A stretch of 64,000 nucleotides of DNA from Vicugna vicugna (taxonomy: Eukaryota). Location of the stretch: NCBI GenBank assembly GCA_013265495.1, contig MU057615.1, forward strand, positions 1 to 64,000, in the 5' to 3' direction. The translations under genes were made by a program, and so were the position numbers. The notes under the pieces are model-generated. The model was not told where the DNA came from. It worked only from the letters and a program-made list of their open reading frames with translations, and searched no databases. Within the stretch, counting starts at the first letter, position 1; the number at the start of each line of letters is the position of its first letter. This document shows positions 1 to 61,251 of this stretch, piece after piece.

Positions 1-241
1 TTCACAACTGCCTCTCCCAGATCACTAAACTCGGTAGCAGCCTGACAGCAAATACAGTATTATTTCCTTTTTTTTTTTTTTTTTAAAACAGAGCCTGGCC
101 ATGATTCTCAGAAGCTAAAAACAAGGATGCTTGCAAAGTATGAATATGCACCACTTTAAAATCTGGCATTGCCAGAGATGTCTCAATAAATGGAGTATGA
201 TGCAAAGGGAACTGCCCTGAACTTTTCACGTGCAAGAAATA

Positions 242-892
242 TGAGATCTGAGAATCACAAACGCAAAACGAGGCCATACATGAGCCCCTGTGTCCCTCTC
301 CTCGGAAGTACAAGGCTTTTCCTTTAGTCTCGCAGGCCTCCCCTGAGTCTCAAAAGGCTGACTCAAGAGCGAACCATCAGGAAATGTGAGGATTTAGAGA
401 CAAGGAATACCTGCTGGACCCGGAAACTGGTAACAATCTGAACTACAGACCTTCACACAGCAGAGTCACTGAACTCCCAGTTTCCTGTAAGATACAGATA
501 AAGGCCTGACGCACACTCCTAACTTCCTCTTACAGAAAGCAGATCCCCCACCAGGTGAAAACTACCATCTGCAAGCACGCAGACCCCAGACAGGCAGAAA
601 CCAGAAGACTGGGGATGCTCGACACACCACCATGATGCCAGCCATCCGAGAACTGAGCACTGATCATGAGAACCGAGAGCTGATCACGCACCCTGCAGCT
701 CCCTCCCTCACACTGCCTTTAAGAACCTTTCCCTGAAAGCTATCGGGAAGTTGGGGTCCTTTGAGCATGAGCTGCCCATTCTCTTTGCTTGGCACCTGCA
801 ATAAACGCTGTACTCTGCTTCACCATGACCTGGTGACAGAAGACTGGCTTTACGACGTGTGGGTGAGTGGACCCAAGTTTGGTTTGGTAACA
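242..892 (+). mobile_element. ERV1-class solo LTR
   Basis: Ends ...GACCCAAGTTTGGTTTGGTAACA (892), a typical ERV1 U5 terminus. AATAAA at 800-805, TATA-like TTTAAGAA at ~718. 5' boundary approximate; no clear TSD. Confidence 0.8.
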
Positions 893-4884: not shown

Positions 4885-6030
4885 AATAAAGACATTTTCT
4901 GATTGGGTTCTTTGCTTAGCTGGGTCAGGACAAGTCATCAGACACACAGTTTGTATGGGATTAAATCATTTTTGGCCTGGTGGTTCCAGTAGAGAATGAT
5001 TTTTGAATGAGTTAACAAGAAGGCTTCAACATCTATAGTCATTTATGCTTTTGGTTTTTAGGAGAAAATGGCGAATGACAAATAACTGGAGTGTCTGAGA
5101 CTTATTAAAACCAAAGGTTCCAGAGGATGTGTCTTGGAGTCATTTGAGGTTTCCGCCGTTGTCTGTGCCTTACACAGCTCCAGGGCTGCACCACCCACGA
5201 GGATGCAGGTTTGCTGCCTAGAAAGACTGGGCGGCAGAGGGTGCTGGTGATGGAGAAAGTGAGTCTTGGTCACCAGGTTATCCTCAGTGCTCCCTCGGCA
5301 TGCCCTTTATGAGTTCCGTATGTATTCATTGGATTCTCCTGTGTGCTTATTCTTTGGAAACAGCATCCTGGTTGGTAGGTGTAAGACAACGTAGTTTAAG
5401 ACATTTGCCATCTAATCTAAAAACAGGCCAAATTCACTTGCCTTAAAGAAGTCCCAGGGGCAAAGAAATAAAAAAGAAGTGTCCACATGTGTCCAGAGAG
5501 AGTCACAGCTTCCACTGCAGGACCAGGAGGGCCTTTGCCCTGACCCGTGCGGCCGGGCTTGTTGCGGGACGTGAGAGGGTGTGGGCTCCAATGGCAGCTG
5601 TCTGTTTACTCATGTCACAGTGAATCTTAGGGACAGTTCCATGCAGAATTTTACTGTTGGCATGACAAGGTCATGGACTATCTGTGAAGACAGCCTTTGA
5701 ATTTAAAGTCCTATCTGATTGAATTCCCCTGATGACTCAATGGTAAGATATCAGACCACATAGATCTTACCTATGCCAGAGTTAAATGAGGGAAATTTTG
5801 ATTTCTGCAGGAAGTCCAGGGTTTCAGGTTTACCACGCATCTGAGAACGGAGCAGGTGGTGACAAGAGTGTACCCAGATCTCTCGGCAGAGCTGTCCTTA
5901 GCTTGGTGTGGTAGGTCGTAGAGTCTGAGTACTTATGGATAAAGGCAAAGATTTTTGTGCTTCATTTCTTCATTTTATGTTTTAGATGCGCCCTTTAGTG
6001 TGAAAAACTCAGCAGAAGTCTAAGTCATTT

Positions 6031-56500: not shown

Positions 56501-57629
56501 GGGGTGCTTTTGTCCTCAAGATATCTATCTATCTGCCTAGAGACAGATAGACAGAGATACCAATATCGAGATCGATGTAGTTTTTTTTTTCTTGCTTTCT
56601 CCTTGTTGGTCTACAGCTCTGGGCTCTGTGACAAAGTCCTTTATCTGGATTTGACTAGCACCTGGTGCACCCATAAAGCGAGATAGTTCAACAGCATTCT
56701 TGAAAACATATTTACTTGTCTAAATTTCATTTTGTGTTCATTCAATTTGTTTTTCCTATCCTTATATTATTTGTAAATCCTTTAAGACATAAAAAAACAT
56801 GCCTCTCTCTCTTTACCTGGAGTATTTGTGGAAAAGAGCTGTTTACTGTGACACCTGCCTGAGATGAAAATAAAAGTTGGGGGCAAAGGTGACCAAAATA
56901 TTGAAAGGAAAAGCTGAGGAATGAGGTGTTTATAGCCGACTCTGAAAAGAACCAGCATATTCTTGAGACTCTAGAAGGGCACACATTTGTCAGGTACAGG
57001 GCTTTGAGCATGCCCAGTGCTACATGCATGACTAGGAAAGACCTGAGAACGCCCTAAGCTCTGAGTAACTCTGGGGCTTTGCACAAATAGGAAGTGAAGG
57101 CTAAAGCAGAGCTATAATATGTTTACCGGAGCATTGAAGGTGGACCCGAACATGCACACAAAGCCCTTTGCCAAAGGCTGGGAGATTAATTACTTCCAAG
57201 CACTTGAGAAAATCACTGTCCAGCCAGTAAGCTGTTCCACCAGCTAACTGAGCAGAGGCGTGGGTGCCTACACAACACGAAATACAGCAACAAATACAGT
57301 AACAAGAAAAGGAACAAAACAAACCCTGGGAGGAAAAGAAATTTGATTTCCAGACTTTTATCACATTATGTTATTTTAAATGTCATGTTTTCACAACAAA
57401 TAAATTATGAGGCATGGAAAGGAACATGAAAGATTAGACGATACTCGGGAAAAAGCAGTCAGTAGAAACTGGCCTTGATGTCTTTGGACTTGATAGAAAA
57501 GGACTTTAAATCATGTATATAAAATATGTTCAAAGAACTAACAGAAACCATGTCTAAAAAATTAATGAAAGACATATCTCACCAAATGGAGAATGTAGAA
57601 AAGGAGATAAGACTTTATATAAGAAATGA

Positions 57630-57665
57630 ATCAGAGGAGATCAGGCGTGTTCAGTGTGGTATGGC
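57630..57665 (-). pseudogene. 5S rRNA fragment (nt ~8-43), antisense, at the 5' junction of an L1 insertion
   Basis: ATCAGAGGAGATCAGGCGTGTTCAGTGTGGTATGGC vs reverse complement of mammalian 5S ATCAGACGAGATCGGGCGCGTTCAGGGTGGTATGGC: 32/36 identical by manual alignment. Confidence 0.85.
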
Positions 57666-58240
57666 ACTATTTACAATAGCAAAGACATGGAAACAGCCTA
57701 AATGTCCATAGACAGATGACTGGGTAAAGAAGATGTGGTTTATTTATACAATGGAATACTACTCAGCCATAAAAACCGACAACGTAATGCCATTTGCAGC
57801 AACATCGATGCTCCTGGAGAATGTCATTCTAAGTGAAGTAAGCCAGAAAGAGAAAGAAAAATACCATATGAGATCGCTCATATGTGGAATCTAAAAAGAA
57901 AAAAGAAGAAGAAGAAAGAAAGAAAAAGAAAGACAAATGAACATAAATACAAAACAGAAACAGACTCATAGACATAGACTACAAACTTGTGGTTGCCAGG
58001 GGGGAGGGGGTAGGAAGGGGCAGACTGGAAGTTCAAAATTTGTAGATACTGACAGGCATATATAGAATAGATAAACAAGATTATACTGTATAGCAAAGGG
58101 ATATGTATACAAGATCTTGTGGTAGCTCAAGGTGAAAAAGAATGTGACAATGAATATATGTATGTCCATGTATCACTGAAAAATTGTGCTCTACACTGGA
58201 AATTGACACAACATTGTAAACTGACTATAACTCAATTAAA
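57664..58240 (+). mobile_element. Young L1 3' end (5S-L1 chimeric insertion)
   Basis: GCACTATTTACAATAGC.. ORF2 C-terminus + 3'UTR. Perfect 13-bp TSD AAGAAATGAATCA (57621-57633 / 58241-58253) encloses both the 5S and L1 parts. Confidence 0.95.
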
Positions 58241-59444
58241 AAGAAATGAATCAAAACAAGATTCTAGAATTGAAAAATACTATAATTGAGATGAAAACAT
58301 CACTAGAGGCACTGAACAGCAGATTCAAGTAATAGAAGAAAGTGTCAGTGCACATGGATATGGGTCAGTTGGGATTTTTCAGTCCAAAGGACAGAAATTT
58401 TGAAAAGTGTAGATAATCAATAGAGCCTCAGAGACTTGTGAGTCATTTAGGTGATCTGCATAAATGTATATACATAAGGGGAGTCCCAGCAGGGGAGAAG
58501 TGGAGACATAAAGAATATTTAAAAAATTAATGGCCCCAAACTTCCCAAATTTGATGAAAACAATTAATTCACACATCTAAGGAGCTCAAAGGACACTAGG
58601 TAGGAAAACCTCAACAGATCCATAGCAGACACAAATTAGTCAGCCTTACTGAAGCCAAAGAGAAAGGAACTTGACATTGAAGAGAAGCTTTCCTGCTACA
58701 AGGGATCCTCAGTAAGCTTGCCAGTCAGTTTCTCAGGAAGCGTGGAGGTCAGAACGTAGTGAGAAAATACATAGAGTGCTAAAAACGTATACATACAAAC
58801 GTATACTACAGTGCTGTACTATATAAGAAGTCTATATGCAGTAAAACTAGCCTTCAAAAATAAAGGAGAGATTCAGACACTCCTAGGTACACAGAAACAG
58901 AGAAAATTCATTATTTGTGGACTTGCCCATAAGAAATACTGAGAAGAGTCCTTCAGGACTAAATGAAAAAACACTGGAGAGTAACTGGACCTACGTGAAG
59001 AAGTAAAGAGCCCCAGTATAAATAACTAAATAGGTAAATGTAAAAACTATACAAATGTATTTCAGTTTTGAATATTTTCCTGCTATCTAAATTAAAAGGC
59101 AGTGGCATAAAGCAAGAATTAGTCATCTGTGTTGATACAATAATGCAAAAAAGTGCAAATTGTCATACTTGACATAGCACAAAGGGGCAGGGAATGGAGC
59201 TGTGTATGTGCATAGCTTTGGCATATTATTGAAATTAAGTTAGACTTGATGGGAGCTGGATGATTATAATTAAGAAAATAATTCAAAAATAGAGTAAAAG
59301 AAAGAACAAGGGAATTAAAATGGTGCACTAGAAAATATCAACTTAATGCAAAAAAAGGCAGCAATGGAAGAAGAAAGGAACAAAGAAGACATAAGATATA
59401 TACAAAAACACAAATGGCACACTCAAATCCTACCTTACTAATTA

Positions 59445-60497: not shown

Positions 60498-61251
60498 TAC
60501 ACATTCTTCTCAAGTACACACGGGTCATTCTCCTCCATTCTTCAGGGAAAAATGTCTATATTAGGCCATTAAATAAATTTCAGTAAATTTAGAAGATATG
60601 AAATCATACAAAATATCTTCTCCATTCATAATGGAATGAAATTGGAAATCAGTAACGGAAAAAAATTGGGGGGAATTCACAAATATGTGGAAATTAAATT
60701 AAACAGTACACTCCTAAATAACAAGTGGGTCAAATAAGAAATGGGAATTAGAAAATACTCTTTTGAGTTGAAAAAACAGAAACACAGTGTTCCAGAACTT
60801 ATGAGATGCTGCACCAGCTGTGCTTGGAGGAGAGTGGATAAGTGCAAATGCCTGTTCTGAAAAAGAGTACCTCAGATAGGTAACTTGAATTTCCCATCTC
60901 AAAAAAGTAGAAAAACAAGAGAAAAATGGCCAAAAAAGGAGAAGGAAGGAAATAATAAAGATTACATTAGAAATAAATTAAAAAATGAATCAAAAACAAC
61001 AGAGAAAATCAACAAAACCCAAAGTTGGTTCCTTGAAAAGATCAGCAGAATTGACAAACCCTTAGCTACACCAAGGAAAAAAGGGAGAAGATGCAAATTA
61101 CTAAATTAAGGAATGAAAGAGGAGACAGCACAACTAAAAGGAAAAAAAAATGCTTATAAAGAAATACTAAAAAAAATTGTATGTCAACAAATGAAATAAC
61201 CTGGATGCAATAAACAAATTCCTAGAAAAATTTCCAAAACTGACTCAAGAT

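Follow-up and report, generated by a model that had tools for sequence, protein, structure and literature searches.

The locus described here lies in the genome of the vicugna (Vicugna vicugna, assembly GCA_013265495.1), where an antisense fragment of 5S ribosomal RNA (5S rRNA, hereafter 5S) directly precedes the truncated 3' end of a LINE-1 (L1) retrotransposon, with both parts enclosed by a single target-site duplication (TSD). It occupies positions 57621-58253 of the analysed stretch, hereafter the window, which comprises positions 1 to 64,000 of the forward strand of contig MU057615.1 and has a length of 64,000 nucleotides (nt). A preliminary description made from the letters of the window had proposed that the two parts form a chimeric retro-insertion, possibly generated by twin priming in trans, i.e. 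by one L1 integration that copied two different RNAs. The locus consists of the following features, given with the evidence on which each was placed:

57621-57633, plus strand: upstream copy of the TSD, AAGAAATGAATCA (exact-repeat search of the window)
57630-57665, minus strand, antisense to the L1: 5S rRNA fragment, host 5S nt 8-43 (32/36, blastn-short)
57664-57665, plus strand: junction dinucleotide GC, common to the 5S (nt 9-8, antisense) and the first L1-homologous bases (alignments of L1 copies)
57664-58240, plus strand: 5'-truncated LINE-1 3' end, about 577 bp (ORF2p homology and L1 copies)
58241-58253, plus strand: downstream copy of the TSD (exact-repeat search of the window)
57340-57620, plus strand: left flank, an old dispersed repeat that formed the insertion target (60-70% identity to paralogues)
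58254-58553, plus strand: right flank, the same old repeat continuing (paralogue matches)

The 13-bp sequence AAGAAATGAATCA is a perfect repeat that occurs exactly twice in the window, and its two copies bracket both parts of the insert, as had been described. The interval between them measures 607 bp and is made up of the antisense 5S fragment and the sense L1 3' end. The last four nucleotides of the upstream copy, ATCA (57630-57633), are at the same time the first four nucleotides of the antisense 5S sequence (5S nt 40-43), an overlap that can be read in the sequence itself and in the start of the 5S alignment at 57630, and this end of the TSD can pair with UGAU at 5S nt 40-43. At its other end the 5S match (57665) directly adjoins the 5' end of the truncated L1, the two parts having opposite orientations, and the GC held in common at this junction was recovered from both the 5S alignment and the L1 copies. 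The 5S fragment has no TSD of its own, and its nt-8 end abuts the L1 and not a copy of the target. The cleavage site, taken in the orientation of the L1, reads AT/AAGA (top-strand notation), an endonuclease-like site that satisfies the 1T/3A rule of Table S2 in PMC13174262, where CT/AAGA and TT/AAGA are both scored 'Yes'. When a single mismatch was allowed, the TSD 13-mer gave 4 matches in the window against 0.30 expected, a number that was reached in 0 of 100 shuffles. The one-mismatch copies are located at 5958-5970 (minus strand) and 60980-60992 (plus strand), and both may belong to further copies of the old repeat that makes up the flanks.

The identity of the 5S fragment was established by alignment to the 5S of the host, for which the best match to the Rfam model RF00001 in the assembly (109.8 bits; 2.03 Gb in 12,405 contigs) was used as the reference. 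Window positions 57630-57665 are the reverse complement of host 5S nt 8-43 with 32 of 36 positions identical and no gap, as first proposed, and the match has an E value of 5.7e-6 against the 64-kb window, in which the next best match stands at E = 1.3. Aligned to antisense 5S, the 30 nt that lie strictly between the TSD and the L1 have a score of 22, compared with 5-8 for their alignment to the 200 nt of L1 expected before the junction (19 L1 copies), and none of 5000 shuffles reached 22, the shuffle maximum being 14. Within the window, 30-mers with at least 22/30 identity to 5S were found only at positions 57625-57643. Three of the four mismatches to 5S fall in CpG dinucleotides of the 5S and two of these three are CpG-to-TpG/CpA transitions, the usual outcome of deamination, so that a canonical 5S template is sufficient to account for the fragment. 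The preliminary description had pointed to RF00001 as a check on this identity. Rfam cmscan did not report the fragment in a 3-kb stretch, nor in 101 nt searched at E ≤ 10 (gathering threshold of RF00001: 38 bits), as is to be expected of a 36-nt piece of a 120-nt structured model, and the alignment to host 5S was therefore used instead.

The L1 part contains the last ~75 codons of ORF2, ending with the stop codon TAA at 57892-57894, and a 3' untranslated region with a purine-rich tract. Positions 57712-57891 encode the C-terminal 57 residues of LINE-1 ORF2p (E = 6e-16 in a search of the PDB; human ORF2p chains, residues 1217-1274), which confirms the sense orientation of the L1 3' end inside the TSD. 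An in-frame TAG is present at 57709-57711 of the ORF2 remnant, at a place where the open reading frame of an intact relative (L012) has a serine codon. In 39 of 39 other L1 copies retrieved from the genome the match to the window begins at 57662-57666, mostly at 57664, and none of them spans the 5S-like bases; the 36-mer accordingly lies outside the host L1 sequence. Diverged L1 sequence was rejected as its origin on the strength of these start points and of the scores given above. At the junction point the L1 copies read ...CATAGCAGCACTATT; they read ...CCCAATGTTCATAGCAGCACTATT, hence only GC is held in common with the 5S segment. Identity of the L1 copies to the window was 94-96% over the first 97 nt and 76-86% overall (19 copies), while the inserted L1 differs from the majority of 16 relatives by 19 mismatches within the L1, or ~4% (24/521 when the TSD columns are included).

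The 3' end of the L1 reads ...CTCAATTAAAA directly before the TSD, with an A run of at most 4-5 nt and no long tail, and most of the 16 aligned relatives extend past the AATAAA-like run into a further A-rich tail before their flanks. First-strand priming may also have been internal here (58230-58253), in the A run that follows the AATAAA-like signal. Pfam searches with translated pieces of the L1 tail and the flanks returned no family for three pieces and one chance-level match (E = 0.13), and the 143-residue ORF2 C-terminus of an L1 relative likewise had no Pfam family. The LINE-1 tail is a young insertion into an older repeat.

The target repeat made it possible to use paralogous sites as surrogate empty sites in place of orthologous ones. 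Among 29 paralogous loci that were searched with both flanks, both flanks matched in 22, and in 21 of these 22 they were colinear within 19 nt (exactly so in 5) with no insert of ~600 bp, the target site being present in the paralogues as one copy. The 5S fragment is absent from these sites, which bears on the concern that it might already have been present in the target. As the paralogues of the flanking repeat run straight through the site, the antisense 5S and the L1 most likely entered as one insertion inside one TSD. With up to 3 mismatches allowed, the 22-mer that spans the junction is unique in the 2.03-Gb assembly apart from 15 matches that all have 3 mismatches and look unrelated, and this uniqueness speaks against a duplication and against a chimeric source element that has propagated. 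Of 24 sequencing runs, 20, from organisms A-E, contain half or more of the words sampled from a 2-kb stretch, with shares of 0.76-0.89 that are compatible with the presence as well as with the absence of the insert, which makes up 31% of the stretch and some of whose words also occur in other L1 copies. As to the target itself, the left flank is presumably related to the ORF1 region of an old L1, which it resembles to our eye, a likeness that was confirmed by no tool; Pfam and PDB searches with short translated pieces of the flanks gave no match.

A genome-wide pattern search with antisense 5S nt 8-43, allowing up to 3 mismatches, was carried out on the same assembly; the counts are a lower bound, the copy in the window itself, with 4 mismatches, being missed. 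It gave 67 matches against 0 for the reversed control, and 27 of these coincide with RF00001 matches, of which the assembly has 46. The remaining 40 copies (L070-L109) are all 3'-truncated, with ends at nt 39-51 (31 copies), nt 59 (1 copy) and nt 88-93 (8 copies). Direct repeats of 8-18 nt adjoin both ends in 35 of the 40, often overlapping the 5S-like sequence by a few bases, and several are at TTTT/AA-like nicks. These 35 copies are solo tailless 5S retropseudogenes, a class described by Noll et al. 2015 (PMC5322556). The truncation of the window fragment at 5S nt 43 falls within the recurrent breakpoint at nt 40-50. A 5S-derived short interspersed element was also considered as the source and found to be unsupported, the 5S-like matches of the genome being pseudogenes and truncated solo copies.

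One of these 40 copies belongs to a second antisense chimera in the vicugna genome (L089 and L110; G000:C5155:5029400-5030277, minus strand), in which 5S nt 1-46 are combined with an L1 3' end that has an A-tail, within a TSD that reads A[G/A]AAGATGAGGTC. At the 3' end of this TSD, GAGGTCAGA, which overlaps 5S nt 38-46, 8 of 9 bases are complementary to the 5S. Two further truncated copies, L083 (5S nt 1-41) and L085 (nt 9-42), have no adjacent direct repeat, and their flanks on the nt-1 side (right) were unmatched to an L1 reference set covering approximately the last 2 kb of the L1; they may be chimeras with something else. Another observation concerns two sense 5S copies (L005 and L008, at about locus positions 1480-1640) with a break near nt 88-92 and no A-tail, each of which has a direct repeat of ~15 bp on its two sides (GGAAAGAGAAATCTC and GAAGGGGGCCTGGAG) and for which Rfam nonetheless reports model positions 1-120.

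Taken together, these features are best explained by a single LINE-1 integration in which two RNAs were copied, that is by twin priming in trans, to which we assign a probability of about 0.7. The arrangement fits priming of the top strand, on which the upstream TSD passes without interruption into the antisense 5S; ATCA can pair with UGAU, and the nick is at AT/AAGA. In this scheme the bottom strand would have been nicked by the L1 endonuclease at AT/AAGA, and the freed 3' end would have primed near the 3' end of the L1 RNA. A cut in the top strand 13 bp downstream would then have produced a 3' end ...GAATCA that could anneal through ATCA:UGAU to 5S rRNA nt 40-43, a segment assigned to loop C in PMC13174262. 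Reverse transcriptase would have extended this end by 32 nt, to 5S nt 8, and the resulting antisense-5S complementary DNA (cDNA) would have been joined to the L1 first-strand cDNA at the GC microhomology, with second-strand synthesis completing the insertion. The sequences show the anatomy with its single TSD, the orientation of the parts, the overlaps at the two junctions and paralogous sites that lack the insert; we infer the order of these events, the role of the top-strand 3'-OH as the primer and the use of mature 5S rRNA as the template. The ages of the two parts are consistent with each other, as the L1 has diverged by ~4% and the 5S by 4 of 36 positions, 3 of them in fast-decaying CpG sites. 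The priming of the top strand on 5S RNA through ATCA:UGAU, which had been suggested at the outset, agrees with this geometry and is also how this configuration has been explained in the literature.

Several points weigh against this interpretation. The complementarity of 4 nt at the target junction is short and would be expected by chance in about 1 of 256 cases at a fixed junction, and the GC overlap is weaker still, at about 1 in 16. The 5S copy ends at nt 8 and not at nt 1, whereas the start of the 5S is commonly at the junction according to PMC13174262. The L1 is almost without an A-tail, an unusual state for a product of canonical target-primed reverse transcription; the A-tail is a hallmark of that canonical process and not of the chimera class as such. 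From the sequence alone one can neither identify the 3'-OH that primed on the 5S nor tell a full-length 5S template from a pre-cleaved 5' fragment. Finally, the probable single event is deduced from the paralogous sites and from parsimony, which stand in for a true orthologous empty site.

The main competitor to twin priming in trans is a template switch, which we consider unlikely. Here the first-strand cDNA would have moved from the L1 RNA at GC to an antisense-5S template (a pseudogene transcript or a 5S cDNA), whereby sense 5S would be made on the bottom strand and its end joined to the top-strand overhang via ATCA microhomology. The final sequence and the two microhomologies would be identical to those observed, and 5S pseudogenes that are possibly transcribed in antisense are numerous, as judged from the 46 RF00001 matches and the 67 pattern matches in the genome. 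However, antisense-5S templates are expected to be far rarer than 5S rRNA, and a switch leaves unexplained why the segment ends in the nt 39-51 hotspot, which is used by solo tailless 5S copies primed from target DNA, and why 8 of 9 bases are complementary in the second chimera. It is very unlikely that the source L1 was already chimeric, with an antisense tailless 5S nested in its ORF2, and was then retrotransposed with a 5' truncation that fell within the 5S. Insertion of solo tailless 5S copies into repeats, including L1, does occur (L093 and L108 are examples), yet a source with its ORF2 broken by 5S would be non-autonomous, the 22-mer at the junction was found nowhere else in the assembly within 3 mismatches, and the 5' truncation would by chance have had to hit the hotspot at 5S nt 43 and share 4 nt with the target.

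Two independent insertions that came to abut, one a solo tailless antisense 5S retropseudogene and the other an L1 fragment, are highly improbable. Solo tailless 5S copies are common in this genome, as is evident from the 35 of 40 truncated copies with their own direct repeats at both ends, but the 5S piece in the window has no such repeat of its own, the sole TSD pair encloses both parts, and one element would have had to land exactly at the boundary of the other without a TSD. The idea that filler or diverged L1 sequence happens to resemble 5S can be given next to no weight. It could appeal to the silence of Rfam on the fragment and to the likeness between ATGTTCA near the junction in the L1 and GTGTTCA in the fragment; against it stand the 32/36 match (E = 5.7e-6), the 0 of 5000 shuffles, the scores of 5-8 for upstream L1 against 22 for 5S, and the fact that the matched 5S interval is one that is recurrently captured in human.

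With twin priming in trans as the preferred explanation, the locus can be compared with chimeras described in human. In PMC13174262 (Cell Genomics 2026; 2025 preprint), the 5S in 5S/L1 chimeras is described as 'typically in antisense' and as truncated, with position 46 a common end point, TSDs of 7-17 bp are given for 20 of 27 human 5S/L1 chimeras, and the antisense bias is taken to indicate twin priming. By our own count from Table S2 of the same paper, 23 of the 27 are antisense by strand, and 12 of these 23 end at 5S nt 40-50, including the cases 5S:8-45 and 5S:10-45. The vicugna locus resembles the human antisense 5S/L1 insertions of this paper in having a 3'-truncated antisense 5S directly 5' of a truncated L1, one TSD within 7-17 bp, an endonuclease-like site and a breakpoint near nt 40-50, twin priming being proposed for both. 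It differs in being from a non-human genome, in the 5S that stops at nt 8 and in the L1 that is almost without an A-tail. The main text of PMC13174262 contains no word starting with 'microhomolog' or 'anneal', whereas the overlap between TSD and 5S is explicit in the vicugna locus.

Priming of the top strand on a second RNA has also been put forward by Doucet et al. 2015 (PMC4476161) for inverted, 3'-truncated U5, U1, U2 and U6 chimeras with L1, and that paper reports breakpoints located in a loop and an RNA complementary to the site of insertion. These small nuclear RNA/L1 chimeras are like the vicugna locus in the copying of a second RNA from the top-strand 3' end, the internal start in a single-stranded loop, the complementarity between RNA and site and the endonuclease consensus found only in the L1 orientation; they are unlike it in the captured RNA, which is U5, U1, U2 or U6 and not 5S. 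Two claims of the preliminary description find no support in this literature. Its premise that the two parts of 5S-L1 chimeras normally share one orientation is at odds with the passage and with the count of 23 of 27 given above, and the configuration that it called rarely documented is represented among the 27 human 5S/L1 chimeras of PMC13174262, the same model having been available in PMC4476161 since 2015. The antisense 5S/L1 configuration is neither rare nor undocumented, and the locus is a non-human case of a known class.

Three other systems share some of the traits. Tailless 5S retropseudogenes are said to have been treated by Schmitz et al. in 2004, which we know through its citation by Noll et al. 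only. In PMC5322556, 555 human copies of this kind are reported, with breakpoints in single-stranded regions, internal priming is argued and target complementarity of 2-18 nt is given at the breakpoints. Like the vicugna locus, they would involve internal priming on single-stranded 5S, they have no A-tail and, in the vicugna genome, they have the same breakpoints; unlike it, they are solo first-strand events with their own TSD, whereas priming here was apparently at the second-strand nick of an L1 insertion. In the U6/L1 sense chimeras of PMC13174262, a single TSD likewise encloses a small RNA and the truncated L1 that it precedes, but the U6 is full-length and in sense, and template switching or RNA ligation is held responsible; the antisense orientation of the 5S excludes a route of that type for the vicugna locus. 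In classical twin priming, too, the top-strand 3'-OH primes a second reverse transcription and the cDNAs are joined by microhomology, the difference being that the L1 RNA itself also serves for the second priming, so that the product contains an inverted L1 segment in place of a foreign RNA. Classical twin priming was reportedly set out by Ostertag and Kazazian in 2001 as the origin of L1 5' inversions.

We tentatively raise the possibility that priming on the loop-C region of 5S is a conserved, sequence-guided property of the L1 integration complex. In this view the breakpoints of the solo copies at nt 39-51 and nt 88-93, which are first-strand events, recur in antisense chimeras, which are second-strand events, the overlap covering nt 39-51 in the vicugna genome and both breakpoints in human. 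Complementarity of the 3' end of the TSD to 5S is frequent: it extends over 4 nt and over 8 of 9 nt in the two vicugna chimeras, and at least 2 nt are common to the 5S coordinates and the upstream TSD in 16 of the 23 antisense human cases (own count, Table S2 of PMC13174262). If this were true, the chimeras would be natural records of the position of the second-strand 3'-OH and of the RNAs that lie beside ORF2p, and antisense chimeras could be mined across mammals to study second-strand synthesis.

Taken by itself the locus is of little importance, being a clean and well-preserved example of a class that has been catalogued in human and attributed to twin priming. What it adds is evidence that the class exists beyond human, the vicugna genome having two cases, and two junctions that are both readable to the nucleotide, with an overlap of 4 nt with the target and of 2 nt with the L1. 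The breakpoint that it shares with solo tailless 5S copies links second-strand chimeras to internal priming by the L1 reverse transcriptase.

One further arrangement was noted in the genome, at L013, where positions 1-342 (minus strand) hold an L1 reverse-transcriptase segment (Pfam RVT_1, E = 6e-7) that is inverted upstream of a sense L1 3' end starting from about position 1501 (plus strand); it could represent either a 5' inversion made by classical twin priming or a pair of distinct elements.

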